Notes under the pieces: generated by a model
Seen by the model: only the letters and a program-made list of their open reading frames with translations
Database searches by the model: none
What the model was told of the DNA's origin: nothing
In this document: positions 35,135-58,643 of the stretch, piece by piece
Numbering within the stretch: the stretch's first letter is position 1
Layout: the number at the start of each line of letters is the position of its first letter
DNA from: an uncultured archaeon
GTDB taxonomy: Archaea; Aenigmatarchaeota; Aenigmatarchaeia; CG10238-14; SCSR01
DNA length: 64,000 bases
Assembly (NCBI GenBank): GCA_964512235.1
Contig: CAZEGD010000001.1
Coordinates: 106,874-170,873 of the forward strand
Direction of reading: 5' to 3'
Position numbers and translations under genes: made by a program

Positions 35135-36015
35135 AGATACAAGAACTTAATACAAAGGAAGAAATGACATGGTGTCCGGGCTGCCCGAATAATGGAATCC
35201 TGTCAGCTGTAAAGCAGGCAATAGTGGATTTAGTCGATAAAGGTAGCATAGAGCTGAAGGATGTAGTCGATGTCACTGGCATAGGCTGCCATGCAAAGAT
35301 TTATGATTACTTGAATGTCAATGGCTTTTATTCAATCCATGGCAGAGTCATACCAACGGCGTGGGGTATAAAACTCGCCAACCCGCAGCTTACTGTCATA
35401 GGGTTTGGCGGTGATGGTGATACGTATGCAGAAGGTATAGGCCATTTTGTGCATGCATGCCGCTATAATGCCAATGTCACAATGATAGTGCATAATAATC
35501 AAGTATTTGCTTTAACAACCGGTCAGGCAACACCAACTACAGAAAAGGGGTTCAAGGGGAAGTCAACACCATTGGGTGTGGGAGAAAAGCCGCTAAACCC
35601 GATTGCCTTGGCATTAATCAATAACGCAACCTTTGTAGCAAGGGGATTTGCCCTGGATGTAAAGCATCTTACAAATCTCATAGAGCAAGCAATAGAGCAT
35701 AAGGGATTTGGATTCATAGATGTCTTACAGCCTTGCTTGATATACCACGATCATAAGACAGTCTCTTACTTCAAGCAGCATACGTACAAGCTAGAGGAAA
35801 ATAATCATGATGCGAATAGCTATGAAGATGCGTTGAAAAAGTCTTTGGAATGGGATTATTGCATTGATGGTAAAACGAAGATTCCCATTGGTGTCTTCTA
35901 CAAAATCGAAAGACCAACTTATGAAGAGCAGTGGAAATTAAAGAAGCCGTTGCATATAGTTGAAAGAAAGGTGGATTGGAAGAAAATCATAAGTGAGTTT
36001 AAGTTGAATGAATAG
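35131..36015 (+). CDS. 2-oxoacid:ferredoxin oxidoreductase, beta (TPP-binding) subunit
   Basis: WCPGCPN, TGIGCH, GGDGDTYAEG. Confidence 0.9.
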   Translation: MKIQELNTKEEMTWCPGCPNNGILSAVKQAIVDLVDKGSIELKDVVDVTGIGCHAKIYDYLNVNGFYSIHGRVIPTAWGIKLANPQLTVIGFGGDGDTYAEGIGHFVHACRYNANVTMIVHNNQVFALTTGQATPTTEKGFKGKSTPLGVGEKPLNPIALALINNATFVARGFALDVKHLTNLIEQAIEHKGFGFIDVLQPCLIYHDHKTVSYFKQHTYKLEENNHDANSYEDALKKSLEWDYCIDGKTKIPIGVFYKIERPTYEEQWKLKKPLHIVERKVDWKKIISEFKLNE

Positions 36016-36445
36016 ACTTATTCAAATATCAGCAGTTAGGAATTTTCTGTCGAAGAAATTAGAAGAATTGGCAACGGCCAATTAGACGAAAGATATCGAC
36101 ACCATTTTTCAAGAAGATTAAGAAAGCTTTAGAGAAGAGAGAAATTTAGTCATATTCCCTCATACATCCACCTCTTTGATTTTTTCTTTTTTCTTTTTGC
36201 AATTTCATCAAGTGCTTTCAAAATACCAACTTTTTTTCTGGCAGCTTTTCTCATATGCTTAGATATTGTCATAAATCATATTTTACTAAGAAACTTAAAA
36301 AACTTTCTCAAATCACCGATTTTGGGCAAACAAGCACTATAGAGTTTTTACTTACTTAGCAAAAATTAGCGTTCAATCCAGCTCATTCGGCAAACATTAT
36401 TTCACAGAAGCGAAGTTTTAAGAAAATTAAAAAGTAGTTCTAATT

Positions 36446-37045
36446 ATGAAAATTTGGAAAAAGACTGCTTCTATTTTTAGAAGAAGAGAGCAGATTGTAT
36501 GGACTAAAAAACCCGATGAGACAGAAGAACATTTCTTTGAAAGATGTTTTTGGGGGAAAAAACCAGAAAAACCAGTGTATGAATATTATCCAATTAAAAT
36601 AATTGACCCGAAAACAAAAAAGCCAGTGTATTTTAGCATGATGTATAAAGAAGAAACTAGGGAATATTCAGTTCCAGTAAGAAAATTAAATCCAACATTG
36701 GTTTTGAGGGATGAGTCTGGCAAAACCGAGAAAGTTAAATGGAATAAAATTAAAAAGAAACTTGATAAGGAACAAAGAATAAGATTAGAAGAAAGACTTA
36801 AGTTTGAACATGAGAAAGATGAAAAACACTCAGTTGTAACATTCAAATATTGGGATAATGTAAAAGAATGGTTTGATAAAAAAAGTCAAAAAACTATTGA
36901 AAAAAGTCTTGGAATAAAAATATCAAATAAAGTTAAAAGAACAATAAAACGATTTGGCCATTTTGTGGGTTCAAATCCCACCTCCCGCACAAATTATAAT
37001 AACCTCAACCAAACAGGATTTTATGGCTTCATTAAACCAATTTGA
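36446..37045 (+). CDS. hypothetical K-rich 199-aa protein in an AT-rich island
   Basis: ORF only. The composition is atypical, and the 3' end contains a tRNA 3'-half-like sequence. Confidence 0.35.
   Translation: MKIWKKTASIFRRREQIVWTKKPDETEEHFFERCFWGKKPEKPVYEYYPIKIIDPKTKKPVYFSMMYKEETREYSVPVRKLNPTLVLRDESGKTEKVKWNKIKKKLDKEQRIRLEERLKFEHEKDEKHSVVTFKYWDNVKEWFDKKSQKTIEKSLGIKISNKVKRTIKRFGHFVGSNPTSRTNYNNLNQTGFYGFIKPI
36965..36989 (+). other. orphan tRNA 3'-end-like fragment (T-arm plus acceptor 3' strand)
   Basis: GTGGG-TTCAAAT-CCCAC-CTCCCGC-A. No matching 5' half (GCGGGAG...) is present in the window. Confidence 0.45.
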
Positions 37046-41744: not shown

Positions 41745-41869
41745 GCTGGTGTAGATCAGTCTGGTTAGATCGCCGTGCTCATAAACTTTTATGAGCGTTG
41801 ATAGCGAGTGCTAAATGAGATACGAAAGGTGATACGCGGAAGTCGCGAGTTCAAATCTCGCCACCAGCA
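41745..41869 (+). tRNA. tRNA-Met(CAT), elongator-like (or Ile2), with a canonical-position intron of about 50 nt
   Basis: Acceptor GCTGGTG/CACCAGC, stem CCGTG/CGCGG, loop CTCATA. The intron begins near 41784 and contains TATGAG, complementary to the anticodon loop. T-arm GCGAG-TTCAAAT-CTCGC. Confidence 0.85.
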
Positions 41870-43328: not shown

Positions 43329-43337
43329 TTTTAAATA
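43329..43337 (+). promoter_or_regulatory. candidate TATA box of the 16S transcription unit
   Basis: TTTTAAATA, followed by a roughly 200-nt structured leader and the processing helix. Confidence 0.3.
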
Positions 43338-43534: not shown

Positions 43535-43567
43535 TGCAGCAGTCGATGAAACCTAGAGGCAGAACCG
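43535..43567 (+). other. 16S processing helix, 5' strand (bulge-helix-bulge)
   Basis: TGCAGCAGT-C-GATG-AAA-CCTAGAGGCAGAACC pairs with 45345-45377. This gives 9 bp, a 3-nt bulge, 4 bp, a 3-nt bulge and 15 bp. Confidence 0.85.
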
Positions 43568-44232
43568 CCAATTCTGGTTGATCCTGCCAGAGGCCATTGC
43601 TATCCGAGTTCGACTAAGCCATGCGAGCCGTGAGGGGTTAAGCCCTCGGCGGACTGCTCCGTAATGCACAGATAACCTACCCTAAGGTGGGAGATAATCT
43701 CGAGAAATTGAGGCTAATATCCCATAGGTATCCGAGGCTGGAATGCACGGATACTCAAAGCTCCGGCGCCTTAGGATGGGACTGTGTCCTATCAGGCTGT
43801 TGCCGGTGTAAAGAACCAGCAAACCTATAACGGGTACGGGCTATGGAAGTAGGAGCCCGGAGATGGATTCTGAGACATGAATCCAGGTACTACGGTACGC
43901 AGCAGGCGCGAAACCTTTACAATGCATTAACGTGCGATAAGGGGACTCGGAGTGCTCCAGCACTGCTGGAGCTTTTGCCTACTGAAAACGGGTAAGCGAA
44001 TAAGGGCTGGGTAATACAGGTGCCAGCCGCCGCGGTAATACCTGAGGCCCGAGTGATGGCCAGCTTTATTGGGTCTAAAGCGTCCGTAGCCGGTTTGGTA
44101 AGTTCTTGCTGAAATCCTCCGGTAAACTGGAGGGCGTGGTGAGAATACTACCAGACTTGAGACCGGGAGAGGGTGGGGGTACTCGTAGGGGAGGGGTTAA
44201 ATCCTGTAATCCTGCGGGGACCACCTGTGGCG

Positions 44233-44262
44233 TTGGTTGCTCGTCGCGAGCGACTGCTACAA
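44233..44262 (+). other. 30-nt hairpin insertion inside the conserved GTGGCG|AAGGCG motif of the 16S
   Basis: TTGGTTGCTCGTCGCGAGCGACTGCTACAA. Contains an 8-bp stem GTTGCTCG/CGAGCGAC. Confidence 0.6.
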
Positions 44263-44273
44263 AAGGCGCCCAC

Positions 44274-44305
<32 letters not shown>

Positions 44306-44896
44306 GTGGGTAGCGATTGGGATTAGATACCCCAGTAGTCCACGCCGTAAACGATGCCCGCTTGGTGTAGCATGCTTCTTGGGAGTATGCTGTGCCGGAG
44401 CGTAGGTGTTAAGCGGGCCACCTGGGAACTACGACCGCAAGGTTGAAACTTAAGGGAATTGGCGGGGGAGCACACAAGGGGTGTGCACTGCGGTTCAATT
44501 GGATTCAACGCCGGAAATCTCACCAGGGCCGACGGCAGGATGATGGTCAGTCTGAAGGGCTTACCTGACAAGCCGAGAGGTGGTGCATGGCCATCGCCAG
44601 CTCGTACCGTGAGGCGTGCGCTTAAGTGCGTTAACGAGCGAGACCCACATCTTATGTTGCAATCTTGATTTCCGAATCAGGAGCACTCATAAGAGACCGC
44701 TGGTGATAAATCAGAGGAAGGAGTGGGCGACGGTAGGTCTGTATGCCCTGAATGTCCTGGGCTACACGCGGTGCACAATGTATGCCACAGTGGGATGCTA
44801 CCGCGAAAGCGGACGCGAACCCCTTAAAAGCATACTCAGTTCAGATCGAAGGCTGTAACTCGCCTTCGTGAAGCCGGAATCCCTAGTAAGCGAACG

Positions 44897-45017
44897 TCAT
44901 CAAGCCAAAGCTTTGTTGATGACGATAATGCACCACTCTGATGTATTGACGAAGCTTGTCTTCGTCTTTGCAATAATGATGAGTAAAAAATAAAGAATCA
45001 GAGCTTTAGCGTGAAAT
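44897..45017 (+). other. AT-rich insertion of roughly 113 nt in the apical loop of the GCGAACG/CGTTCGC hairpin of the 16S (E. coli position about 1360)
   Basis: The canonical loop is 7-9 nt; here it is 121 nt. Contains the C/D-box-like strings TTGATGA, CTGA, ATGATGA and CAGA. Confidence 0.6.
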
Positions 45018-45024
45018 CGTTCGC

Positions 45025-45062
<38 letters not shown>

Positions 45063-45152
45063 GCCAATCGAGTGGAGTTTAAACGAGACTTGCTTTGCTG
45101 CTTCGGCAGTAAAAGTGGGCCGAGTTTCGGTTCCGCGAGAAGGGCTAAGTCG

Positions 45153-45285
45153 CCACTTCAAGAGTTGTGCGAGTTTTAAGATGAAAAAATGGCTTGACTC
45201 TGACATTGCTTTGACGCACTTCGTGCGTCGGTGCAATGATTGATGAGTCGGAGGTGAATTGATTAAACATCATCTCTTGGAGCGA
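45153..45285 (+). other. insertion of roughly 133 nt between AAGTCG and TAA(A)CAAGGTAGCCGTA near the 16S 3' end
   Basis: It interrupts the conserved AAGTCGTAACAAGG string. The ends can pair (CAAGAG/CTCTTG). Confidence 0.6.
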
Positions 45286-45344
45286 TAAACAAGGTAGCCG
45301 TACGGGAACGTGCGGCTGGATCACCTCCTTAAGATCCAAGTGTG

Positions 45345-45377
45345 CTGGTTCTGCCTCTAGGCATCAAAACTGCTGCA
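45345..45377 (+). other. 16S processing helix, 3' strand
   Basis: CTGGTTCTGCCTCTAGG-CATC-AAA-ACTGCTGCA, complementary to 43535-43567. Confidence 0.85.
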
Positions 45378-45465
45378 AAAATATTTTATTTTGACATGAA
45401 CCAGCGTGAGCTGTATACCACAGAACCGCAATATTTATATAGTGTCACTAGTCAATAGTAACGTT

Positions 45466-46092
45466 ATGTCTAAACTAATTGTACTGCCTGAAAACCATCC
45501 AGAAAGAATATTGAAGGAAATAGAGATTATTGAAAATATTCGTCAAAATGCAGATACTAGAGATCCAACAAATGTGAAAGATATTAAAAATTATCGTTTG
45601 ATAGAGGAAAAATTGTTTGGTTATGCAACTGATATAGTGGCACTGGAAGCCGAAACACTTGGACGGAAAGATGTCAGTACAATCTATTCAGAGATGGAAA
45701 ATGATACTATACTTCAATTGTATGGAGAATTGGTGCAGGGGAAGAAGTTAATCTATTTGAGCGAAGGGTTTTACGGAAATAATGCTTTAAAGTCAAAAGC
45801 TGAGAGTGGACGTCTTGACCCTACATACGACTGGCTCCAAGGAGAGATGGAAAAATACTGGGTAGATAGAATAATCGAAAAACCTCCGGTGGAAGGAACT
45901 CTAGGAGTTCTAAAAATTGGGGGACACCATATAGAAAAGAGTGAATATATGGGGGATGTCCCAAAAATGTTGAGGGAAAAAGGTTTTGAAGTTGAGATTG
46001 TAAAAAGTCCGAATTATCAATCCCTGATAGATGATTGTTTCAAAGAGGCAGGATTAGACGTAGACCGGATAAGAGCATCTGCATTGATTTGA
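45466..46092 (+). CDS. hypothetical 208-aa protein encoded inside the 16S-23S spacer
   Basis: ATG about 25 nt downstream of ATATTTATATAG (leaderless geometry). No family recognised. Confidence 0.55.
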   Translation: MSKLIVLPENHPERILKEIEIIENIRQNADTRDPTNVKDIKNYRLIEEKLFGYATDIVALEAETLGRKDVSTIYSEMENDTILQLYGELVQGKKLIYLSEGFYGNNALKSKAESGRLDPTYDWLQGEMEKYWVDRIIEKPPVEGTLGVLKIGGHHIEKSEYMGDVPKMLREKGFEVEIVKSPNYQSLIDDCFKEAGLDVDRIRASALI

Positions 46093-46148
46093 TTTGCGTA
46101 AAATTAGTAATCTTTAAATTTAACTTCTCATAACAAATATTAGTTCAC

Positions 46149-46221
46149 GGGCCGATAGTTCAATGGCTAGAATGCCGTCCCTGCAAGGCGGAGGTTCCGG
46201 GTTCGAGTCCCGGTCGGTCCA
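46149..46221 (+). tRNA. tRNA-Ala(TGC), the classical archaeal rRNA-spacer tRNA
   Basis: Acceptor GGGCCGA/TCGGTCC with the G3:U70 Ala identity pair. Anticodon arm CCGTC-CCTGCAA-GGCGG (C at position 33). T-arm CCGGG-TTCGAGT-CCCGG. Confidence 0.8.
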
Positions 46222-46232
46222 CTCACAATGTT

Positions 46233-46268
46233 TTGACTTTATGTGCAAGATTGACTTTAAGTGCAAAG
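46233..46268. repeat. two tandem copies of the 18-nt motif TTGACTTTAAGTGCAAGA (dyad core ACTT-T-AAGT)
   Basis: TTGACTTTATGTGCAAGA followed by TTGACTTTAAGTGCAAAG. Confidence 0.85.
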
Positions 46269-46308
46269 CTACACTACATATTAAAAATTTCTGAACGCCA
46301 AGGCTGAG

Positions 46309-46920
46309 CTATTTAGTTTGAATCTTAGGTTCTTTAATAGGATAGCACAGTTCCCTTACTATTCTTACAGAAAAGTCTTCCAACTCATTTTTGGTATGTA
46401 CAACACAACCATTGCGGACTTCGTCTTCAGAATAAAACAAAGAATAAAGCAACCTTTGAAAAGGAGGTGTGTCAAATACACCTCGCTTTTTTAATTCATA
46501 AAAATCTAAATCTCCATTTTTATCCAACAACTCATTTATTATCGCTCTCTTCTCCTTAGGCAAGACTCTGGTCACTTCCCTTATTTCTTCAAGTTGAACA
46601 CTTCTACCATACCACCATAGAAACTCACCACAGATATCAACTGTGGTTACTCCCTTAGTTTTTAACTTCTCAATAAGTTCTTCACTTTCTCTGATTTTGT
46701 ATCTCATAATTTCTGCTTCTTCCGGAACATCGAAGGGCAGTTCATCATCTCTATTTAGTAACATTATGCAATTTTTTCTTCTCCAGACTGCTTCGTACAG
46801 TCTTTTAAGATAGACATCATACTCTCCATATTTTTCTTCCATTGCACCATCTATCCAGCGTGCACTATTAACGCGGGATCCTGGATGCACTACTACAAGC
46901 AACGGCTCTTGATTTTTCAT
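46309..46920 (-). CDS. hypothetical 203-aa protein (spacer cassette 1)
   Basis: ORF only. No family recognised. Confidence 0.55.
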   Translation of the reverse strand: MKNQEPLLVVVHPGSRVNSARWIDGAMEEKYGEYDVYLKRLYEAVWRRKNCIMLLNRDDELPFDVPEEAEIMRYKIRESEELIEKLKTKGVTTVDICGEFLWWYGRSVQLEEIREVTRVLPKEKRAIINELLDKNGDLDFYELKKRGVFDTPPFQRLLYSLFYSEDEVRNGCVVHTKNELEDFSVRIVRELCYPIKEPKIQTK

Positions 46921-46993
46921 AAAAGGATAATCAAAAAATTAAAGATTTAAGTCCTTTGACAATGTTGGGATTTGAAACCACTGAAAAAAGATT

Positions 46994-47377
46994 TCACTCC
47001 CTTCGTTTCCTTTCGTCTTTAAGTTTTGTGATAAGAGAGGTCATTATTCCCAAATCAATTTCAGAAATTTTAAATTCATCTCTATGCGGGCAATCTTCAT
47101 CTAATGTAGTACAATTTTTATCTTCATCATAGATTATGGGATATAGCTTACATCCTTTTGGTCTATTTTCGTAAATCAAGCATTGTTTGCCATCATTAAA
47201 AACACATCTTCCATCGCAATTCTTTAATTGTAACCAACCATCTCTATTGACAACAAAATAATCATAGTCGAAACCCAATCCTTTTATCCGTTCAATATCT
47301 TCCTTCAATAAAGGCATTTCAGTTTCTAAGCAACACTTGATGCATTTGTGACGTATACAACATTTTTTCATATCCAT
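46994..47377 (-). CDS. YkgJ-family cysteine-cluster (CxxCxxCC-type) protein
   Basis: 127 aa. KCCIRHKCIKCC and CVFNDGKQCLIYENRPKGCKLYP match the UPF0153/YkgJ pattern. Confidence 0.7.
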   Translation of the reverse strand: MDMKKCCIRHKCIKCCLETEMPLLKEDIERIKGLGFDYDYFVVNRDGWLQLKNCDGRCVFNDGKQCLIYENRPKGCKLYPIIYDEDKNCTTLDEDCPHRDEFKISEIDLGIMTSLITKLKDERKRRE

Positions 47378-47390
47378 TCACCTGAAGGAA

Positions 47391-47408
47391 CTATGTTTAA
47401 GTGCAGAA
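47391..47408. repeat. single degenerate copy of the 18-nt motif
   Basis: CTATGTTTAAGTGCAGAA. Lies between the YkgJ start codon and its putative TATA box (TTTTTAAATT on the minus strand). Confidence 0.7.
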
Positions 47409-47482
47409 TTTAAAAAGTCAGCCAAAAATAACTTTATCTTTCAGGGTATTTATTCCTCAAAACAATGCTTACTATCAATCCT
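47396..47482. repeat. 87-nt direct repeat, copy A
   Basis: 85 of 87 nt identical to 48104-48190 by manual alignment. Covers the 3' end of the 47450-47764 ORF. Confidence 0.9.
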
Positions 47483-47764
47483 TTCCTTTACAAGCACATC
47501 AAGCAACTTTACAATCCATCTAGCCTTGCCTTTCTTCGTCAAGGCGTACAAATGCTCCTTCCTCTCTATCAACCCACAGGATTCCAGCCTCTGTAGCGTC
47601 TCTGTTAGTGTGGATGTGGACTTGAACCTTATGCCAGTCAACGCCTGCAACTGATTCCCTATGTCTACCGCCCGCAAAGGCTCTGACTTGGACAGTATCC
47701 TGAGTATGTTCCTGTTCGTCCGCTCCGCCACTACCGCCACTATATCCTTCTTGTACCTAGCCAT
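47450..47764 (-). CDS. small winged-helix DNA-binding protein (spacer cassette 2)
   Basis: 104 aa from MARYKKD. NILRILSKSEPLRAVDIGNQL...LQRLESCGLIERK is wHTH-like. Confidence 0.55.
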   Translation of the reverse strand: MARYKKDIVAVVAERTNRNILRILSKSEPLRAVDIGNQLQALTGIRFKSTSTLTETLQRLESCGLIERKEHLYALTKKGKARWIVKLLDVLVKERIDSKHCFEE

Positions 47765-47852
47765 TAACAATAATTCGGTCTCGCAAATAACGAGTTTTAT
47801 CTCGTTTAAACCGATAATAATATAACCAATCAAGAGAAAACTATAATGACAG

Positions 47853-48065
47853 GTGCATCTGGATATGGTAGACGGAGTTACCAAAGACTTCAAGAAAAGA
47901 CTTCTCAAGGATATAAGTACAAATCCTGTGTCAATTAGCGAACTTTCCAGAAAGCTGAAGGTTCGCAGAGATTTTGTGACTGGTTATTTGCAGGCACTAG
48001 AAGATATGGGAGATATTAGGCTAGTCGTGGTTGGCAGGTCTAAAGTATATCTATCGAGGAAGTGA
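47853..48065 (+). CDS. small winged-helix DNA-binding protein, divergent partner
   Basis: 70 aa. ISTNPVSISELSRKLKVRRDFVTGYLQALEDMGDI. Confidence 0.5.
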   Translation: MHLDMVDGVTKDFKKRLLKDISTNPVSISELSRKLKVRRDFVTGYLQALEDMGDIRLVVVGRSKVYLSRK

Positions 48066-48080
48066 AAAAGGCATTATTTT

Positions 48081-48116
48081 CAGATTAAAAGTGCAAGACG
48101 GACTTTAAGTGTAGAA
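48081..48116. repeat. two degenerate tandem copies of the 18-nt motif
   Basis: CAGATTAAAAGTGCAAGA followed by CGGACTTTAAGTGTAGAA. Confidence 0.65.
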
Positions 48117-48190
48117 TTTAAAAAGTCAGCCAAAAATGACTTTATCTTTCAGGGTATTTATTCCTCAAAACAATGCTTACTATCAATCCT
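48104..48190. repeat. 87-nt direct repeat, copy B
   Basis: See copy A. Covers the 3' end of the 48142-48327 ORF in a different reading frame. Confidence 0.9.
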
Positions 48191-48327
48191 GCAATAACAC
48201 CAATAGCACATGCTACTAATACCCTTTCTGGTAAAGAAAGACCCAAATTTGATAACATCCCTATCGATCCCCCAGTAACACCACCGACAACTCCTCCAAT
48301 AATACCTCCTTTTTTATTTATTTTCAT
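48142..48327 (-). CDS. glycine-zipper membrane peptide, 61 aa (spacer cassette 3)
   Basis: MKINKKGGIIGGVVGGVTGGSIGM... Trimmed to the internal ATG. Confidence 0.4.
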   Translation of the reverse strand: MKINKKGGIIGGVVGGVTGGSIGMLSNLGLSLPERVLVACAIGVIAGLIVSIVLRNKYPER

Positions 48328-48383
48328 ATTCAAACCTCTCCAAATAATAATTAAAAACCAGTGTTTAAAACTGATTGTAATTT

Positions 48384-48419
48384 TTGACTTTAAGTGCAAG
48401 ATGGAGTTTAAGTGCAAAG
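48384..48419. repeat. two tandem copies of the 18-nt motif
   Basis: TTGACTTTAAGTGCAAGA followed by TGGAGTTTAAGTGCAAAG. Confidence 0.85.
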
Positions 48420-48436
48420 CCACATTATACGAAATC

Positions 48437-48446
48437 TTTATAAATA
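48437..48446 (+). promoter_or_regulatory. candidate TATA box of an independent 23S transcription unit
   Basis: TTTATAAATA, about 390 nt upstream of the 23S processing helix. Minus-strand genes lie immediately upstream. Confidence 0.3.
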
Positions 48447-48827
48447 AGTAGGACCATTATATTTTTTACTTCGGTGTCGCTATGCAAGAGTAGAAACGCT
48501 CATTTACCCTCTGTTTAGCGATGAGCATGTGCCTTTTTCTGATGCCTTCTGTTGCATTTCGTATGCGACATGGCTGTGATGAGAGTGGACACCTTGCTAT
48601 GCTTGTAGAGGTGTGCGGTCAAACGCACGAGCGTGCTAATACTACATTCAATAGCGTATAGTTACGTTGAAGTGTAGATGCAAATCCCGATTGAACATCG
48701 TGGGTTGAAGAGTGGAAGTTGATGATTGTAGAGAAGTATCCGAGCAACCATCCCGTGGGCAATAGGATGGATTGCAGATGAGGTGCGAGCTGTCTCATAT
48801 GAAACTGTAAATAATGATACTACCATA

Positions 48828-48853
48828 GGATCAAACTGGCAATAGAGGTCTGC
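48828..48853 (+). other. 23S processing helix, 5' strand (bulge-helix-bulge)
   Basis: GGATCAAAC-TGGC-AAT-AGAGGTCTGC pairs with 51993-52018. This gives 9 bp, an AAA bulge, 4 bp, an AAT bulge and 10 bp. Confidence 0.8.
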
Positions 48854-51245
48854 TGCGCCAGCCACTTGGTGGATGGCTTGGTTCCAGACGCCGAAGAAGG
48901 TCGTAGCAAGCTGCGATAAGCCTGGGTTAGCCGCATGCGGGCTTAGACCCCAGGATCGCCGAATGCAACTAGTAGCTTTGGCTGATGCGAGAGCATTGGG
49001 AACGCGGCGAATTGAAGCATCTTAGTAGCCGCAGGAAAAGAAAACAATTGTGATACCGTGAGTAACGGCGAGTAAAAGCGGTATAGGGCAAACCGAATCT
49101 ATGCCGAAAGGCAATAGAGTTGTGGTGTTTGGACTTGTGTCTTTCCCAACCAGTTGACCGGAAATCCGCTGGGACGCGGTGCGGTAAAGGGTGATAGCCC
49201 CGTACGGGAAGACTGGGAGGAAAATGGCAAGTATCCAGAGTACTGCTCCTCGATTATGGAGTAGGAATATGCCGGGCATTAACCGGCAACCCTAAACACG
49301 TCTGGAGACCGATAGTGAAGTAGTATGATGACAGAAGGCTGAAAAGTACCGCGAAAGCGGGGTGAAAAGAATCTGAAACCAAGTTGGCAATAGTCTGGTA
49401 CGGCGCGGAAGGTGCTGCCTGGAAGGAAATGTGCGCAAGCACGAAGTACGACGGGTAGCTTACAGTGTCGTGCCATCCGTTTTGAAGAACGGGACAGGGA
49501 GTTTATTTCAGTAGTGAGGTTAAGCTGTTAAGCAGTGTAGCCGTAGCGAAAGCGACAGGTCCGTATGCGCAAGCAGTGGGACGTGGTGTGAAAGCGCCAG
49601 AAATTACTGGGATAGGACCCGAAACCAGTCGATCTAACCCTGGGTAGGATGAAGTTGCGCGAAAGCGCAATGGAGGTCCGTTACCGTTGCTGAGTCACAT
49701 ATCGCTCGGGTGACCTGGGGATAGGGGTGAAAAGCCTAACGAGACTGGTGATAGCTGGTTCCTCTCGAAATGCATCTAAGTGCAGCCTGGTCCGAGGTGT
49801 GACATGGGGTAGAGCTACTGATTGGATTGTCAAGGCCCGAAAGGGTCAGCTTTCCTGTCAAACTCCGAATCCATGCCTACCGTAGACGACCGGAGTGAGG
49901 GCTCTTGGGTTAAGCCCGAGACCCAAAAGGGAAACAACCCCAACTGAGGTTAAGGTCTCTAAATGCCGGCTAAACGAGAAAGGGAGTCTAAACTCTCAGA
50001 CAGTAGGACTGTAGGCTCAGAAGCAGCCACCAGTCAAAAAGTGCGTAACAGCTTACCTACCGAGGGTTTGGGCCCTGAAAATGGAAGAGACTAAGCCGGC
50101 TACCGATACCCCAGACTATTCTGTTGAGCAGAATAGTGGTAGAGAGGCGTCCTGCGCGGACAGAAGCTTGGGCGTAAGCTCTAGTAGACCGCGTAGGATT
50201 GAAAATCCTGCCGAAAGTAGCAGCATAGCTGGGCGAGAATCCCAGTCGCCTAAAGGATGCGGGTTTGCCAGCAATGGTTATCAACTGGCAGTTAGTCGGT
50301 CCTAACCTAAATCTTAACCGAACTTAGGGAATGGCAAAGACGTTAATATTCGTCTACCATGAAGGTACACGCGGCAACGCAAGTTAAGCGTCTGACGCTT
50401 CGGGATAAGTCAACGTAAGTCAACTATTGAAATCTGTGGAGTCTTATAACGAGGAGAAACAGATGAATGTGGAAGTAGCTCCGTGTATGCGGAGTTTGGC
50501 TGGTTCCTGGAGCCCATGAAAAGGATGCTTATCGGATCCTTCATGACCGTACCAAGAACCGACACAGGTATCCATGCTGAGAAGGCAATGGTGTGTTGGG
50601 AGAACCCAGTCTAGGGAACTCGGCAAATTAGTGGTGTACGTTCGCAAGAAACCATGCCTGTAATCTTGAACCGGGCGTCCGCATAAGCGAGGCAATCGGG
50701 AAGGGATTGCAGGTTGCAATAACTAGGGGAAAGCGTCTGTTTAACAAAAACGTAGGAGAGCGCTAATGCGAAAGCACTTGTACGCTCTCTGATGCCTGCC
50801 CAGTATCGGTGTGTTAAAACCTGTTTCAACAGGTCGAAGCCCCGGTAAACGGCGGCGGTAACTCTGACCGTCATAAAGTAGCGTAATCCCTTGTCGTTTA
50901 ATTGACGACCCGTCTGAATGGCTTAACGACTTTTCCACTGTCCCAGGCTGGGACCCAGCGAACTTGCTATTCTGGTGAATAGGCCAGAGACCTCCAGTGG
51001 GAAACGTAGACCCCGTGGAACTTTACTGCAGTTTGATGTTGTGATCCGGCTGCGATCGTATAGAGTAGATAGGACTCGTTATCAGGCTGATCCGTCAGGT
51101 GAAAGCTGAGAGGAAAGTGTAACACTATCCCTTTGTTGCTGTATCACTTACTCCTCGGAGGACAGCATTTAATGGGCAGTTCGGCTGGGGTGGTACTCCC
51201 TTGAGAATGCATCAAGGGAGCCCAAAGATCAGCTCATCGAGGTCA

Positions 51246-51337
51246 CAATAAGAGTCATAAATGATTAAACCACTCCAGATTGAGCGCTTAGGCGCTATGA
51301 TAATTGGGTGTAGCTAATGATGGGCTCTTATTGCCCC
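51246..51337 (+). other. candidate insertion of roughly 90 nt in a 23S hairpin loop about 150 nt upstream of the GGGGATAA motif
   Basis: The stem TCGAG/CTCGA normally closes a short GTCGGAAAT-type loop. Here the loop holds an AT-rich element closed by AATAAGAG/CTCTTATT. Confidence 0.45.
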
Positions 51338-51588
51338 AAAGAAATCTCGAGTAGAATGCAAGCGTAAAAGCTGGTCTGACCGTATTTCGCAAAGCGAGAA
51401 ATTCGGCTGCGAAAGCATGGGCTAGCGAGACGTCGATTGGCTTTAATGGCCGCCGATGGTATCAGAAAAGCTACCCCGGGGATAATGGAGTCGTGGCCCC
51501 CGAAAGCCCACATTGACGGGGCGCGTTGCTTCATCGTTGTCGCCTCCCCCCTTCCTGGCCGTGCACAAGCGGCCAAGGGTACAGGTGT

Positions 51589-51630
51589 CCAACATTTGCT
51601 TTGGTGCTTTGCACTGATGCATTGTACACA
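51589..51630 (+). other. candidate 42-nt insertion within the 23S A-loop (helix 92) hairpin
   Basis: CAAGGGTACAGGTGT[42 nt]TACTGGTTAAAG. Removing the 42 nt gives GGGTA-CAGG-TGTTA-CTGG-TTAAAG. The consensus is GGGTA-TGGC-TGTTC-GCCA-TTTAAAG. Confidence 0.5.
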
Positions 51631-51992
51631 TACTGGTTAAAGGGGGACGCTAGGTGGGTTCAGAACGTTGTGAGACAGTTCGGTCGCTATCTACTGGAGG
51701 TGTCGGTTGTCTGACCGGAAGGAAGGGAAAGTACGAAAGGAACACCCTCCCGTGGCCTCTAGTCTATCGGTTGTTCGAAGCATGGCCGAGCAGCCACGCC
51801 ATAGCGGATAAGAGCTGAAAGCATCTAAGCTCGAAACCGCCCGGAAAAATAGACAACCATTCACAAAGCTGACTGGCAACAGCCGGCGGAGTGACGAAGG
51901 CACTCGTAGACTACGAGTTTGATAGAACAGGGGTGTAAGCATCAAGCGTTCGCGCGAGGTGTTCAGCCCGCTGTTACTAATCGCCTGAGGTG

Positions 51993-52018
51993 GCAGACCT
52001 CTGCTAAAAGTTTGATCC
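51993..52018 (+). other. 23S processing helix, 3' strand
   Basis: GCAGACCTCT-GCTA-AAA-GTTTGATCC. Confidence 0.8.
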
Positions 52019-53303: not shown

Positions 53304-56300
53304 ATGAAAGTTGAAGAGGCATTAAAAGAAACCATAGCAGAAAGGAAAGAAAGGGAGAAGCGAAAGCAGAGAATTAAAGCCGTTGCATTATCCATTCTAT
53401 TGATAACTTTAACTCTGATTGTTTTCAGGTATACCACAATAACAGGGATGATTACAAGATTAATAACAAAGCCTGAGCATGTGCAAGATTTGTCTATTTT
53501 GATTAATGAAAATCAAACCTATGATTGGATCTTAAGTGAAGTGTGCACAGATGCAAATTGCTATATCAACTCTGTCAGAATATCTGGAAAGATTATTGGA
53601 AATGATGGTTATGCAAAAGTGTATTTGGAAGATATTGGGGGAAACCGCTATCTCATTTTTGACAAAAGCATTGAAGAAAGTGGAAAATCTCCACTTACAG
53701 GAATGGGTGGGTTGCTGGAAATTCCAGAGCATATCAATCAAACCGTAAATGAAACTACAACTACTACTATCCCGAATCAAACAACTACGACTATAGTGCC
53801 TAATCAAACAACCACGACAACCACACCAAACGAGACCACAATGACAACGATTGAAACTACAACTACGACAACAACTTCTACAACTACTATTCCGAATCAA
53901 ACAACTACTACTTCAACCACATCTACTACCACTTCCACAACTACAACTTCTATGACAACTACTACGACACTACCAATAGAAATTGATTTTAATAATGAAT
54001 GTATAGAAACTTGCGATTTATCTGGAAAGAGTTTGAATGAAAGTTCCTTTATTTTAATTTTTGAACTGAGTGAAGGAGTTACTATTAACATCGATACCAT
54101 CAGTTACAGTTGGCAGTTGGAAAAAGAGATAGCTCTTCCTAAGAAAGCCAAAATAGAAAAGTCTGTAGTGAAAGATTCCAAGGGAAGAACGATTAATTCC
54201 ATACTTATATTGAAGGATTCGCGAACTAAGGATTTGATAGAAAGTATCTCCACAGATTCTGAGGCAACAATTGATATGGGTGAATATGACATTGAAATGT
54301 TACCTGAGCAGCATCCTGTCAAAAAACTAAGTTTAAAAAATGTCAGGGTGAACAAGAAACTCGAAAAGTTAGTTGATTTGGATGATGTGCCCGAGAGCAT
54401 CCCGACACCTGAAGATGTCAATGAATGGACGGAAGTCTATGCTATCGATCCCACAGAGCTCGATTTTGCAGAAGCGGAAGTGACTGTGACAGCCAAAGGT
54501 AATGCTTTGTATAAGTGTAAAGACTGGGATTTTGCTGCGCAAAGCTGCTACGGAGAATGGGTTAAAATAATGGAAATGACTCCAGGAGAAAATTATACAT
54601 TTACTTTAACACAGGAAGACCCTGGGTTTGGTGAAGCTAACATCACAATAATCAATGTCCGGAGCTATCCTACACTTTATGGGAATTGGACTGTCAGGTT
54701 TAACACTATTGGTACTGCTGATTTAACTGTTACAGCTGTCAATGGCACTGGATTTGGAAGAGATATAGAATTTTTGGAGCTGAGATGCGGAGATAATGTT
54801 TTAACGACTGAACTTACTGATGGTGTGGCTTTTGTTGAAAATTACAGCTGCAACGAAACTGGTCATGAAATCAGTAAAGTTCTGATAGCTGGCAAACATA
54901 CGCTAGAGTTTAGATTTGGAGATGATGTTGAATATGCTTACAATGATGTTGTAGTATACGAGACTGGTATAGTCCAAAATGTCAACGGCTGGACTCTAGT
55001 AGCTCTAGACACAAGTTACACAAATCCTGTTGTTATAGTTACAGGTCAAGAAGGTGCAGATATAAGTATGGATGTTGAGGCGTCTAGGCCAATGATAAGG
55101 AATGTCAGCTCCAATAGTTTTGAGGTGCAGGTTGTAAATGACGGTACTAATGTTGTGGAAGAAGATGTTGGCTATATAGTAATGGAAGAAGGTCATTGGA
55201 CAGTAGATGGAGTTGAAGTTGAGGCAGGAACTTATAGTGTAAGCTCAGCTGCTAGTACTCAAACAGTTACTTATGCTGAAACTTTCCCTGGGAACACTGT
55301 TGTGATTGATACTCTTCAAACAGAATGTTCAGAGACAGTTTCTTCAAGATATATAGAGAATAGTATGGGTTCAAGCTCTTTTCAAGTTTGGTGGGAAGAC
55401 TTCTCTGGTCTTACTAGCGAAACCAATTCTTGGAGTTGTGGAGCTGCAACAGCAGGATACATAGCAGTAGAATTAGGAAACTCAAGCAGTATATTCGAAA
55501 GTGGAATATATGATGAGTGTACTGCTGATCCTGGAAGTAGCGATTGGTGCAGTATCACCTTTAGCAATTCATATGCTTCAACACCCATCTTATTTGTTAA
55601 TCCTCATGATGTAGCAGGAAGTGATTCAGCAATTGTGGGAAGAAGAAGTTTAAGCACTACTGGGGTTGACTTAAGATCGACTGAATCAAGAACAGCAGAT
55701 GCTGAGCAAGATCACGCAACAGACGACATGCCTTGGATAGTTTGGACAGATGTGGATGTAGGCGCTCCGCCGACCTATTTTAATAATTCCACAAATACGA
55801 CAGTCGCAGGTCAGCCGACTTTATTCAGCTTGAATTGGACGAGCGAGAAGGGATTGAGTGGATATATTTTCAGCTTATATAATGGAAGTGATTACCAACA
55901 AGAAAGTTGTTCTGGAACGGCAAAAGACTGTAGTGAACACGACAATGAAGACGATTGTGAGTTATGTGGTTGTACTTGGTCAGGCTCAGATTATAACCAA
56001 ACAGTTATGGATTTGAACCCAGAAGCAAGATGGCTATTGAATGGAGATGGGACTGACTCTTCTGGTAATGGACATAATAGTGATGCTGAAACAACTCCAG
56101 TTTTTGTAGATAATATAATTCCAAACAACGATACAGCACAGTGTGGAGATTTTGTTCCAAATGATGAATACCAAATCCCAGACAGTCCTAGAATTAACAC
56201 TGGAACTGGCTACGCAGGAACAGAAAGGGCATTATCTGTGTGGATTATAGCTGACACGATAGATACGACAGGAAATGGGAGAGCAATCTGGACAGAAGGT

Positions 56301-58643
56301 GGTGGAAGTAACTCATTGAATATGTATACTTTTAATAATGGAACTCATGATAACATATACTGCAACGCAGTAGAAAGTGCTAATTATGATTATGTGTATA
56401 CACAAATAAATGAGGGAGAGTTATTACATGTCGGATGTATGTTTAATTTTGCTGGTGGAAGAATAGACATGTATATCAATGGAACATTAGTAAGTTCTGA
56501 TACATCATTGGTAGTTGGAACATCTTTAGCTTCTCACAGTGGAGATTGTGCAATAGGTGGTCAAGACTCCAATACAGACAATCATTTAGGAGCTTCAATG
56601 AGTGCTAATTTTGATGGTAGGATAGCAGATTTAGTATATTGGAGTGATGGTTCTGTCATAACACAACAAAACTTCTCAGGCATCTATCAAGCAGGTATAG
56701 ATACAGCTGGAGGCTGCTCGGGGACTCAAGATTCATGCGCTATAGGAACTTGTAATGCAACTTGTAGCTGTACGCATACTCCATATCTAGAATTTCACAA
56801 TGATACTTGGACAGCTTTTTCTGGAACAACTTGGTCTAACGTAACAAAGATAGTCAATTCAACAACAGGAGCAACTATAAAGTGGTGTGTTTATGCGAAT
56901 GACACGAATGATAGATGGAATGGAACTTCTTGCCAAAATCCATTCAGCTATATTACAACAGCTGGTGTTTCAAACAATGCACCTGTCCTTACTTCTGTAG
57001 ACGTAACAACGTCTTCACCAAACACTACAGAAACTTTGGATTGTGGAGCAAAAGGGTATGATGTTGACGCAGGTGAAGTGCTGAAAACGAATTTCACATG
57101 GTATCGTGATACTGGAACAGACTATGTTGCATGGACATCGGACGATGAGACAGAAGTAGCGACGACTAATGACACATATGTGAATACATCTGCAACTGGT
57201 GACATTGAATCAGCAGATACTGCTAAAACTTACAAATTCATCTGTCAGGCCACGCTTTACGACGATGGAGGAGCTTCAGATATTATGAACTCCAGTGCAG
57301 TAACCGTTGTCAACTCTCCTCCAAATCCAGACTCGAGTTGGAGCCCAGGGACTACACATGATCCCAATCAGGACTTTACGTGGTCGGAAGGGAGTGATGA
57401 TGACGGTGATGGAGTGACTTCTTATCTATGCATAGATGATGATTCGAGTGGAAGGGATAATGAAGTCTGTGATGCCTACTCCAACAGTGGTTTAGATTCT
57501 CCTGTCGAAGATGTTACTTTAACCTACGATGGAGCGAGTAAAACATATTATGGAAGATTGACAGCAACTGATGGTCAGGCCAACTCCACAGATTATGATT
57601 TCACATTCACTTTGACAAACGCTCAGCCATCCGCACCTTCTGCTGCTTACCTCGACGGGCAGACTACAAACGATACAACGCCTACTATAACTTTCACTAA
57701 AGGTACAGATAGTGATACAAGCCCGGTAGACACAGTAACACAGTATATTTCAGTAGACAGTTCAGGCTATACCGATTCAGGCGACACTTATACAACATCG
57801 GGCGACATAAATCAATTCACAATTGACCCTGATTTGAGCGATGGTACTTATTATGTCAGAGAATGGACAGACGATGGGACAGGCTCATCTAACACACGCT
57901 CGGACAATTACGAATATACTTTCACAGTTACATCGGTGATAAGAATATATTCCATAACAATCGAGCCAGATGAAGGCGATCCAGGCATAGTAGTTGACCC
58001 GCTAGCAGATTTGAACAAGACTGTCAACGTAACTGTAGTTGTTGCGAACTCGACCACTATTGATACATGTGAAATAAGAATTTTCAATGCAACATCAAGC
58101 TATGCTAATCCCGTATTTCAGTATATTGATGGGACTGTGCAAAACTGTGGTACAATGTGTGAATGTTTTAAAGAATGGGGTATGGAATATTGGAGGAATG
58201 ATGGATCTTGGAATGTGTCTGTTGATATCAATGTAACCAATGGACCTAGCAACTTCACCTCTCAGAATTTCACATACAATGCATTAACGTCGTTTGATAT
58301 AAACACTTCTACTATTACATTCGGCGGCATCCCGGGACAGACTGTGAACTCGAGCGACGCATATCCGTTACAAATCAAAAATACTGGGAACCAGATACTT
58401 GACTTTAGCTTGAATGGCTCTGACTTCATTGGGTTGGGCGATGCCAGCTATGTGGTGAGGGTAAATAATGCAACTTATAACGAAAGTGTTACCGGGGAAT
58501 TTAGGCAACTTACAGACGACTACTATCTGGCATATTCCAATACTGTTGGTAGTGGTTTTGTAAATGTGTGGTTCCGTGCATATTTGCCAGTGGGTTTCAT
58601 AGAGCAAGGTTACCAAGACGTTATAGAAGTTAAAGGTGAATAG
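53304..58643 (+). CDS. giant (1779-aa) membrane-anchored surface protein: Thr-rich stalk, Ig/PKD-like beta-sandwich repeats, LamG/ConA-like lectin domain
   Basis: N-terminal signal-anchor helix (IKAVALSILLITLTLIVF) and IPNQTTTT repeats. LNGDGTDSSGNGHN...DGRIADLVYWS is LamG_3-like. FTWSEGSDDDGDGVTSY is PKD-like. Very many N-x-S/T sequons. Confidence 0.85.
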   Translation: MKVEEALKETIAERKEREKRKQRIKAVALSILLITLTLIVFRYTTITGMITRLITKPEHVQDLSILINENQTYDWILSEVCTDANCYINSVRISGKIIGNDGYAKVYLEDIGGNRYLIFDKSIEESGKSPLTGMGGLLEIPEHINQTVNETTTTTIPNQTTTTIVPNQTTTTTTPNETTMTTIETTTTTTTSTTTIPNQTTTTSTTSTTTSTTTTSMTTTTTLPIEIDFNNECIETCDLSGKSLNESSFILIFELSEGVTINIDTISYSWQLEKEIALPKKAKIEKSVVKDSKGRTINSILILKDSRTKDLIESISTDSEATIDMGEYDIEMLPEQHPVKKLSLKNVRVNKKLEKLVDLDDVPESIPTPEDVNEWTEVYAIDPTELDFAEAEVTVTAKGNALYKCKDWDFAAQSCYGEWVKIMEMTPGENYTFTLTQEDPGFGEANITIINVRSYPTLYGNWTVRFNTIGTADLTVTAVNGTGFGRDIEFLELRCGDNVLTTELTDGVAFVENYSCNETGHEISKVLIAGKHTLEFRFGDDVEYAYNDVVVYETGIVQNVNGWTLVALDTSYTNPVVIVTGQEGADISMDVEASRPMIRNVSSNSFEVQVVNDGTNVVEEDVGYIVMEEGHWTVDGVEVEAGTYSVSSAASTQTVTYAETFPGNTVVIDTLQTECSETVSSRYIENSMGSSSFQVWWEDFSGLTSETNSWSCGAATAGYIAVELGNSSSIFESGIYDECTADPGSSDWCSITFSNSYASTPILFVNPHDVAGSDSAIVGRRSLSTTGVDLRSTESRTADAEQDHATDDMPWIVWTDVDVGAPPTYFNNSTNTTVAGQPTLFSLNWTSEKGLSGYIFSLYNGSDYQQESCSGTAKDCSEHDNEDDCELCGCTWSGSDYNQTVMDLNPEARWLLNGDGTDSSGNGHNSDAETTPVFVDNIIPNNDTAQCGDFVPNDEYQIPDSPRINTGTGYAGTERALSVWIIADTIDTTGNGRAIWTEGGGSNSLNMYTFNNGTHDNIYCNAVESANYDYVYTQINEGELLHVGCMFNFAGGRIDMYINGTLVSSDTSLVVGTSLASHSGDCAIGGQDSNTDNHLGASMSANFDGRIADLVYWSDGSVITQQNFSGIYQAGIDTAGGCSGTQDSCAIGTCNATCSCTHTPYLEFHNDTWTAFSGTTWSNVTKIVNSTTGATIKWCVYANDTNDRWNGTSCQNPFSYITTAGVSNNAPVLTSVDVTTSSPNTTETLDCGAKGYDVDAGEVLKTNFTWYRDTGTDYVAWTSDDETEVATTNDTYVNTSATGDIESADTAKTYKFICQATLYDDGGASDIMNSSAVTVVNSPPNPDSSWSPGTTHDPNQDFTWSEGSDDDGDGVTSYLCIDDDSSGRDNEVCDAYSNSGLDSPVEDVTLTYDGASKTYYGRLTATDGQANSTDYDFTFTLTNAQPSAPSAAYLDGQTTNDTTPTITFTKGTDSDTSPVDTVTQYISVDSSGYTDSGDTYTTSGDINQFTIDPDLSDGTYYVREWTDDGTGSSNTRSDNYEYTFTVTSVIRIYSITIEPDEGDPGIVVDPLADLNKTVNVTVVVANSTTIDTCEIRIFNATSSYANPVFQYIDGTVQNCGTMCECFKEWGMEYWRNDGSWNVSVDINVTNGPSNFTSQNFTYNALTSFDINTSTITFGGIPGQTVNSSDAYPLQIKNTGNQILDFSLNGSDFIGLGDASYVVRVNNATYNESVTGEFRQLTDDYYLAYSNTVGSGFVNVWFRAYLPVGFIEQGYQDVIEVKGE
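53748..53969 (+). repeat. in-frame Thr-rich low-complexity repeat (IPNQTTTT units) encoding the stalk
   Basis: Repeated ATCCCGAATCAAACAACTAC-like units, roughly aa 149-222 of the giant protein. Confidence 0.85.

Follow-up and report, generated by a model that had tools for sequence, protein, structure and literature searches.

A polar 18-nucleotide repeat marks the boundaries of small gene modules between tRNA-Ala and the 23S rRNA gene in an uncultured archaeon

The described systems that come closest to the locus considered here are the gene cassettes of integrons with their attC recombination sites, the attL/attR repeats of archaeal and bacterial elements that lie beside tRNA genes, the dif modules of Acinetobacter plasmids, the operators of small winged-helix regulators, and rRNA genes that have become unlinked from one another. 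Archaeal metagenome-assembled genomes (MAGs), among them those of DPANN lineages, are reported to contain integrons and also CALINs, which are attC clusters without an integrase (Ghaly et al. 2022, PMC9668308). The plasmid dif (pdif) sites (PMC6449649, PMC13141974) are 28-bp XerC/XerD sites with inverted 11-bp arms and a 6-bp spacer, found in alternating orientation. The subject of this analysis is an 18-nucleotide (nt) motif that recurs at four sites between the tRNA-Ala and 23S rRNA genes in a 64,000-nt stretch of DNA, hereafter the window, from an uncultured archaeon of the Aenigmatarchaeota (GenBank assembly GCA_964512235.1, contig CAZEGD010000001.1, positions 106,874 to 170,873 of the forward strand). 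The motif is a statistically solid polar repeat that bounds gene modules in this interval, and it falls outside every known recombination-site or operator family tested. The reading that we tentatively favor, while stopping short of calling it probable, is that the four sites are recombination joints of acquired modules, active or fossil, in a split rRNA operon.

Seven units of 18 nt make up the repeat, all on the plus strand, with starts at 46233 and 46251 (site A), 47391 (site B), 48081 and 48099 (site C), and 48384 and 48402 (site D). Rescoring by mismatch search and position weight matrix (PWM) upheld both the coordinates that a sequence-only reading of the window had given for the four sites and its description of the copies as mostly tandem pairs: A, C, and D have two units each, and B has one. 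When the 18-mer was searched with up to 3 mismatches, the window yielded 5 matches against 0.12 expected, a count reached by 0 of 100 shuffles; three of these belong to the four-site set, and the remaining two, at 5855 on the minus strand and 61188 on the plus strand, are intragenic, carry 3 mismatches each, and look like chance. The PWM built from the motif copies recovers exactly seven units, at 18–28 bits, within 45330–48850, where the runner-up scores 5.8 bits; its best score in the rest of the window, 15.1 bits, is within the range of the shuffles, whose maximum reaches up to 18. For the 10-nt core TTTAAGTGCA, searched with at most 1 mismatch, 6 of the 10 window matches fall in the 2.2 kb of the motif (Poisson P ~3e-7). 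The units are confined to these 2.2 kb, with nothing comparable in the other 62 kb of the window, and the earlier remark that the motif had been seen nowhere else now has a systematic PWM scan behind it, in which nothing outside rose above shuffle level. The units are by no means uniform: three lie within 2 mismatches of the consensus, and the others show 4–6 differences and have mainly the core in common.

The motif had been described as a dyad, and the ACTT-T-AAGT palindrome on which that description drew does exist, but it is perfect in only three of the seven units. The invariant unit positions (T6, A9, G11, T12, G13, and A15) are shifted toward the right half, and on the reverse strand the PWM gives the sites no more than 5.8 bits, as against 18–28 bits forward; from this one-sided conservation and the poor reverse-strand scores it follows that the element is polar and not a true dyad. 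Nor are the sites an artefact of assembly, since all four junctions are reproduced with 100% identity in independent assemblies (contigs from 11 other samples), with site A spanned by six independent contigs and site D by contigs L019 and L020.

The sites coincide with the boundaries between three modules, which hold the genes for a 203-aa protein and a YkgJ-type protein (ykgJ), for two small winged helix-turn-helix (wHTH) proteins, and for a glycine-zipper-like (Gly-zipper) protein; in this the sequence-only reading was right. Site A, a two-unit block on the plus strand (46231..46276; units 46233–46250 and 46251–46268), begins 9 nt beyond the end of tRNA-Ala. Site B, a single plus-strand unit (47391..47408), lies 14–31 nt upstream of the ykgJ start codon, in keeping with the earlier statement that one copy overlaps the predicted ykgJ promoter. 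Site C, a two-unit hybrid on the plus strand (48081..48116), begins 15 nt past the stop codon of wHTH2, and site D, a two-unit plus-strand block (48382..48427; units 48384–48401 and 48402–48419), stands 57–92 nt upstream of the Gly-zipper start codon, which agrees with the pair that had been placed upstream of the promoter of that gene, and 17 nt upstream of the TATA-like box of the 23S gene.

An alignment of A, B, C, D, and a further copy from another metagenome (contig L007, described below) resolves an invariant core, TTTAAGTG, that is combined with two types of left flank and two types of right flank. The left flank L1 (TTTT-N-GACTTTAAGTGCAAGAT-N-GA-N) occurs in A, D, and L007 and, in degenerate form, in C, with an unrelated flank, L2, being unique to B; the right flank R1 (CAAAGCY...) occurs in A, D, and L007, and R2 (YAGAATTTAAAAAGTCAGCC...) in B and C. 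Sites A and D, both of the form L1-core-R1, are the left and right copies of a 46-nt direct repeat (46231–46276 and 48382–48427, 89% identical) that brackets a 2.1-kb gene block. Site C, which opens with a degenerate left unit of type L1 and continues with the core and R2, is an L1/R2 hybrid, as would be expected from a crossover in the core. In full, the polar two-unit site is about 41 nt long, TTTT-N-GACTTTAAGTGCAAGAT-N-GA-N-TTTAAGTGCAAAGCY, and its units have specific tails, AAGAT and AAAGCC.

A second and larger repeat starts within sites B and C. Its two copies of 87 nt (47396..47482 and 48104..48190, both given on the plus strand and both composed of core and R2) are 98% identical, and the motif core is exactly one end of the copied tract. 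R2 overlaps the last 33–49 nt of two genes, wHTH1 and the Gly-zipper gene, which are unrelated and use different reading frames: copy 1 encodes the final 10 codons and the stop of wHTH1 (...RIDSKHCFEE), and copy 2 the final 15 codons and the stop of the Gly-zipper gene (...GLIVSIVLRNKYPER). A tract that is coding in two frames must have been copied as DNA and not kept for what it encodes. Copy 2 contains a perfect AAAGTCA/TGACTTT hairpin, and copy 1, read on the minus strand, an AAAGTCA-N8-TAACTTT hairpin with a T-run, a combination resembling a terminator that the minus-strand genes would share.

Contig L007 (Ga0181520_10349813, 1088 nt) comes from another metagenome and carries the sequence ...TTTTAGACTTTAAGTGCAAGATCGACTTTAAGTGCAAAGCC..., which is 93% identical to site D over 43 nt; it shares no other similarity with the window, the flanking DNA being unrelated. 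Some 16 of the matched positions lie outside the search pattern, so that the match is real homology and not chance, and the unit-specific tails are kept, which means that the block of ~41 nt was copied whole between loci. In L007 the block has the "unoccupied" L1-core-R1 form. It follows, at a distance of ~20 nt, the stop codon of hsdS, a type I restriction-modification specificity gene (Pfam Methylase_S, E=1.4e-8), and a convergent singleton gene of 79 aa points toward it. Over nine units, the seven of the window plus L007, the core positions are unchanged despite the divergence of A and D to 89%. The metagenome scan, run with the correct 18-nt-period pattern, returned contigs of the window's organism and L007 only; the collection scanned does not contain several of the contigs that carry the sites, and the scan is no measure of how rare the motif is. 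A scan of genome contigs used a 19-nt-period pattern, as against the period of 18 nt in the window, and brought up tandem TTTAAGTGCAAG repeats with periods of 19 and 12 nt in L001 (4225–4285, Flagellimonas, between mutL and ribH) and L002 (90–135, Desulfobacterales). These were rejected as relatives and are probably coincidence, with ~1 chance match expected and the repeats lying in housekeeping intergenic contexts.

What points to recombination joints is the convergence of the 46-nt bracket, the polarity of the element and its confinement to 2.2 kb, the hybrid nature of site C, the tract copied into two genes, the mosaic of GC content, the neighboring tRNA, the independent copy of the block beside a defence gene in L007, and the turnover of gene content in this interval among close relatives. 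The GC content of the modules is heterogeneous, at 0.364/0.323 in the first, 0.473/0.408 in the second, and 0.360 in the third, against a background of 0.419 (sd 0.033; ~42% for the window). In the scheme that we propose, A and D, as nearly complete copies in direct orientation, would play the part of attL and attR around 2.1 kb with five small accessory genes, a block lying between tRNA-Ala and the promoter from which 23S would be transcribed on its own; B and C, as partial and hybrid copies, would be sub-module junctions, with exchange having taken place inside the invariant core TTTAAGTG. We infer that recombination at the site created the joints, as opposed to the site having been placed there for regulation, and the agent may have been a recombinase whose gene lies elsewhere in the genome, or simply recombination between short homologies. 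If everything from the core of A to that of D were removed, tRNA-Ala, a single block, and the TATA box of 23S would remain within ~90 nt, a plausible ancestral layout. If the sites are joints, the locus shows how the stepwise insertion of tiny modules at a defined sequence can pull an archaeal rRNA operon into separate transcription units, and it would point to a module-shuffling system that is invisible to integron-finding tools, having neither attC structure nor IntI.

The support for this mechanism is circumstantial, and a number of observations weigh against it. No recombinase, transposase, or integrase was found by Pfam searches in the block or in the 64-kb window, among open reading frames (ORFs) of at least 120 aa together with the small ORFs of the block; the sites show no attC-like folding, and none of them overlaps a tRNA gene. 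The two-unit block was absent from the viral contigs of IMG/VR, and a DNA comparison of the 2.2-kb gene block from A to D with PLSDB plasmids and GenBank phages gave no match. (More than 120 viral matches to a single 15-mer were dismissed as chance, the second unit being absent, and no relatives of the cassette proteins were found in viral contigs.) An identity of only 89% between A and D means either that the event is old or that the sites were never identical, and short repeats attract homologous recombination whatever their role, so that the mosaic may be a by-product. The contigs from 11 samples have exactly the structure of the window, with no sign of excision or cassette polymorphism. 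Examined as a tRNA-targeting element, the block does have flanking direct repeats (46 nt, 89%), but no tRNA-Ala fragment longer than 12 nt occurs in 46269–48850, none of the five genes (a 203-aa alpha/beta protein, a CxxCxxCC protein, two wHTH proteins, and a small membrane protein) encodes an integrase, and an att site overlapping tRNA-Ala was rejected, as the repeat begins 9 nt after that gene.

Gene turnover in relatives speaks for the joints, but the breakpoints that could be seen speak against a part of the motif in it. In L009 (SRR31155648), which has an ORF1 relative at 88% identity (92% at the nucleotide level; ORF1 is the gene that follows 16S), an extra 98-aa ORF at 833–1129 stands between ORF1 and tRNA-Ala; it bears a weak, sub-threshold resemblance to DUF1374, and the borders of this insertion carry no 18-nt motif. 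The tRNA-Ala gene retains its own TATA box in both the window and L009. In L141 (ENA ERZ23498673), aligned to 46279–47050 of the window, the 203-aa protein is 91% identical and its gene ~95% at the DNA level, and similarity is lost at ~46953–46975, between the promoter of this gene and the 3' end of ykgJ, again with no 18-nt motif at the breakpoint; ykgJ in L141 is judged, from the loss of alignment, to be replaced or highly diverged. With both breakpoints off the motif, turnover here need not involve it. The contigs of these relatives stop just before site A, that of L141 ending 11 nt short of it, and the comparison therefore covers their sequence up to but not including that site. In a comparison of the kind that the sequence-only reading had proposed, of cassette content between strains, the structure is invariant over the 11 samples, and the gene content of the interval differs in L009 and L141.

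A more far-reaching form of the idea, which we consider quite improbable, is that an uncultured archaeal lineage has a trans-acting, site-specific recombination system, new to science, that recognizes the 41-nt block and would use the tRNA-Ala/23S promoter interval as a landing pad, occur also beside defence genes (hsdS), and capture and stack modules of one or two genes. Such a system would be a sequence-specific archaeal analogue of integron cassettes and dif modules, operating without attC hairpins or a linked integrase and splitting an rRNA operon.

Among the alternatives to recombination joints, the one that survives best, though we hold it to be unlikely, is regulatory: binding of the units by dimers of wHTH1 and/or wHTH2 would regulate ykgJ, the Gly-zipper gene, and possibly the 23S promoter. 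Genes for two small wHTH proteins do lie between the sites, the motif is restricted to this neighborhood, site B, 14–31 nt upstream of the ykgJ start, occupies a position at which a bound archaeal repressor would obstruct RNA polymerase, site D lies between the divergent promoters of the Gly-zipper and 23S genes, and the 9-nt palindrome of some units and the 18-bp spacing of the pairs would suit cooperative binding. An autoregulated mini-regulon was one of the two interpretations offered by the sequence-only reading, and the wHTH pair and the placement of B at the ykgJ promoter remain in its favor. The asymmetric conservation, with the palindrome intact in three of seven units and poor reverse-strand scores, is not what a dyad operator should show, and the strict co-orientation of the units would be unnecessary for a symmetric site. 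The region of the wHTH genes' own divergent promoters (47765–47864) has CTCG/CGAG palindromes and no copy of the motif, and A, C, and the L007 copy are situated 10–20 nt past the 3' ends of co-oriented genes, in convergent regions without promoters. The hybrid flanks, and the 87-nt repeat that runs into two coding regions, are left unexplained by an operator.

A different function would be that of a polar transcription stop or insulator, in which a protein-bound or T-rich element would halt read-through on the plus strand and shield the 23S promoter. The oriented 18-bp Sal-box/TTF-I terminators of eukaryotic rDNA spacers follow an analogous logic. Three of the four two-unit sites (after tRNA-Ala, after wHTH2, and after hsdS in L007) start 10–20 nt past a co-oriented gene, each of the three being preceded by a run of 4–5 T; all copies are oriented with rRNA transcription, D is just upstream of the 23S TATA box, and in the convergent and divergent layout of the locus read-through would yield antisense RNA. 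We nevertheless regard this as a doubtful explanation. None of the ~45 other genes of the window ends with the element, which can thus not be the general terminator of the organism, B and D have no co-oriented gene upstream, and no sequence-specific polar terminator is known from archaea; a polar stop alone would account neither for the mosaic flanks nor for the restriction to this neighborhood. Should the sites be operators or polar stops, the locus would illustrate, in compact natural form, how strongly transcribed rRNA genes are insulated from embedded genes in antisense orientation. The element is in any case compact, comprising 41 nt and four sites, with two candidate binding proteins encoded on the spot.

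It is also conceivable, if in our estimate rather improbable, that the repeats have no sequence-specific role and are non-functional leftovers of a local segmental duplication, produced by slippage or unequal crossing-over in an AT-rich intergenic zone. That the sites are part of two larger repeat families, of 46 nt and 87 nt, is in line with such an origin, as is the fact that a protein partner, polymorphism, and a mobile-element relative were all not found. Local duplication is hard to reconcile with a block kept at 93% identity in L007, at an unrelated locus with dissimilar flanks, and with a core that is invariant over nine units though A and D stand at 89%.

The second interpretation offered by the sequence-only reading, recombination or attachment sites of an integron-like cassette array, has to be divided. 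The notion of joints draws support from flanks that are mosaic, from the hybrid character of C, from the 46-nt bracket, and from the heterogeneous GC content; the attC fold, IntI, and uniform orientation, on the other hand, all fail. A classical integron array with the repeats as attC sites, such as a CALIN, is accordingly very improbable, even though short ORFs are separated by repeated sites. Folding of A–D as DNA on both strands gave z values of −0.25 to +1.75 relative to 200 shuffles, with no attC-like hairpin, and on this basis an identity of the sites as attC was rejected; no paired RYYYAAC/GTTRRRY boxes were found on reading the sequence, the ORFs are oriented −, −, −, +, −, two of the modules hold two genes each, and the Pfam search described above detected no IntI/PF00589 tyrosine recombinase.

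Origin elements can be set aside with comparable confidence: the units are direct repeats of 17–18 nt, and their reverse complement TTGCACTTAAAGT loosely resembles (~8/13 positions) the 13-nt mini-ORB TTCCAGTGGAACT (PMC1904270), but the conserved "TTCC" and "GAA" of the mini-ORB (PMC1904270) are not both present, and whereas archaeal origin repeats have a conserved TTCC...GAA core, inverted origin recognition boxes (ORBs) around an AT-rich DNA unwinding element, and an adjacent orc1/cdc6 gene (PMC1904270, PMC4010727), the window has no orc1/cdc6 or Rep gene among its ORFs of at least 120 aa (Pfam), no AT-rich region for unwinding with inverted ORBs on its flanks, units that are all direct, and no GC-skew switch, so that ORB/mini-ORB elements bound by Orc1/Cdc6, or plasmid-type iterons, are highly improbable and an ORB or origin identity was rejected on the literature definition and gene content.

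The setting of the sites is an rRNA locus whose parts appear to be transcribed separately. The 16S rRNA gene (43571..45329, plus strand; Rfam SSU_rRNA_archaea, 1329.7 bits) has a TATA-like box, TTTTAAATA, at 43329–43337, and is followed on the same strand by ORF1 (45466..46092, an ORF call for a 208-aa conserved hypothetical protein), with a TATA box, TATTTATATA, at 45432–41, ~29 nt before the ATG; by tRNA-Ala(TGC) (46149..46222, found by ARAGORN and Rfam), with a TATA-like box, TTTAAAT, at 46113–46119, 36 nt before the gene; and by the 23S rRNA gene (48846..52000, Rfam), with a TATA-like box, TTTATAAATA, at 48437–48446. The 16S and 23S genes are 3.5 kb apart, with six protein-coding ORFs and tRNA-Ala between them. 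"rRNA spacer", the term of the sequence-only reading, is true of the position, but tRNA-Ala and 23S have their own TATA boxes, and with a canonical archaeal TATA box at each of 16S, ORF1, tRNA-Ala, and 23S the "spacer" would comprise several transcripts. The processing stems of 16S (arms at 43553–43567 and 45348–45362, directly beside the rRNA) and of 23S (48828–48850 and 51995–52018, located by duplex search, ~410 nt from site D) directly flank the rRNAs without the motif, and a role of the motif in these stems was rejected. An Rfam search over 45330–48850 at E up to 1 found the tRNA only, and scans for sigma-70 promoters and intrinsic terminators are uninformative for an archaeon. Relatives of ORF1 at 88% and 60% identity occupy the same position after 16S, which marks ORF1 as a resident gene; it was rejected, on comparison, as a paralogue of the 203-aa protein. 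The 16S gene itself spans 1759 nt, as against the 1478 positions of the Rfam model, and near its 3' end there is a block of ~150 nt (45130–45290), between ...aagtcg and aacaaggtagcc..., that looks like an rRNA expansion or intervening sequence.

Within the block, the 203-aa protein (46309..46920, minus strand, 36% GC) had been called an orphan, a label that does not hold: it belongs to an uncharacterised family of proteins of ~200 aa, represented by 33 clusters, with invariant motifs containing Cys, His, and Tyr (conserved HPGY, YGDY, CGEFLWWY, GC, and RELCYP). An AF2 model made from the family alignment has an alpha/beta fold (pLDDT 88.9) and no significant match among PDB folds, and sequence searches of Pfam and PDB were likewise empty; the possibility that this protein is a hidden recombinase was rejected, as the alpha/beta fold has no recombinase features and matches nothing in Pfam or PDB. 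Two distant homologues (in L142 and at 10001–10618 of L143) adjoin ParE or PIN/RHH toxin–antitoxin genes, in ordinary chromosomal contexts without the 18-nt motif, which fits the behavior of an accessory gene. Its neighbor ykgJ (46994..47377, minus strand, 32% GC) encodes a YkgJ-type CxxCxxCC cysteine-cluster protein of 127 aa (Pfam PF03692, E=5e-11); P0005, a candidate relative of the cassette proteins, was discarded as an unrelated YkgJ-domain protein in an ordinary context. Inside ykgJ, a stretch of 65 nt (47077–47142) holds contig ends or starts of at least five independent assemblies (at 47077, 47080, 47109, 47115, and 47142), adjoining the right arm of a 16-nt inverted repeat (46280–46295 and 47060–47075, 94% complementary); this clustering may reflect a strain-level variant or a dip in coverage.

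The middle module does encode two small wHTH proteins, as had been stated, with MarR/PadR-like matches that are sub-threshold in Pfam: wHTH1 (47450..47764, minus strand, 47% GC) is a MarR/PadR-like winged helix of 104 aa, and wHTH2 (47865..48065, plus strand, 41% GC) is a small HTH protein of 66 aa, or of 70 aa if the GTG at 47853 is the start; searches of PHROGs and NCBIfam gave weak wHTH matches only. The last module consists of the gene for a glycine-zipper-like small membrane protein of 61 aa (48142..48327, minus strand, 36% GC).

The remainder of the window is core housekeeping sequence, with genes for ribosomal proteins, six aminoacyl-tRNA synthetases, PCNA, GINS, primase, enolase, and others. 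Two Rfam tRNA matches, at 41745–41869 (125 nt) and 23241–23344 (104 nt), are absent from the ARAGORN calls, and a 95-nt "tRNA-???" called by ARAGORN at 17837–17931 is not in the Rfam output; all three are probably intron-containing tRNA genes. For a single 447-aa ORF (14977–16320, minus strand), Pfam gives weak matches to the large primase subunit as well as to the small one, a pattern suggestive of a fused PriS–PriL primase. A 30%-GC stretch at 36001–37045 holds a 199-aa ORF with no Pfam match, and at 53304–58643 a 1779-aa ORF without a Pfam match, which may encode a surface protein, is followed by ORFs with weak CARDB/Ig-like matches.

Set against the described systems, the locus shows shared features and differences in each case. 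Like the attC arrays of integrons and CALINs (PMC9668308), the locus has modules of one or two genes, a recurring site at or over the 3' end of an ORF, and no integrase nearby; unlike them, it conserves sequence and not structure, has no R/L boxes, mixes orientations, and comprises three modules only. With the attL/attR of elements beside tRNA genes it has in common a 46-nt direct repeat around a compositionally mixed accessory block, downstream of a tRNA and in a housekeeping neighborhood; it differs in that the repeat starts 9 nt past the tRNA, the block is only 2.1 kb and has no integrase, the copies are 89% identical where ~100% is usual, and there are additional partial sites inside. The MarR/PadR/ArsR-type operators resemble the units in their length of ~16–18 bp, a partial dyad, adjacent pairs, proximity to wHTH genes, and one copy at a promoter, whereas the present units are asymmetric and co-oriented, are missing from the promoter of the regulators, and lie mostly at gene 3' ends. 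The pdif modules of Acinetobacter plasmids (PMC6449649, PMC13141974) are likewise small and recombinase-less, bounded by short sites, and thought to be shuffled in trans by a host recombinase; here the sites are 18-nt two-unit direct repeats in one orientation on an archaeal chromosome, with no Xer/dif-like architecture. Finally, as in the case of unlinked rRNA genes (Brewer et al., bioRxiv 10.1101/705046), the 16S and 23S genes are separated, being 3.5 kb apart with protein genes between them and separate TATA boxes, but they are still adjacent and co-oriented, with tRNA-Ala still between them, and the locus looks like an operon that is being pulled apart by insertions rather than one whose rRNA genes have dispersed.

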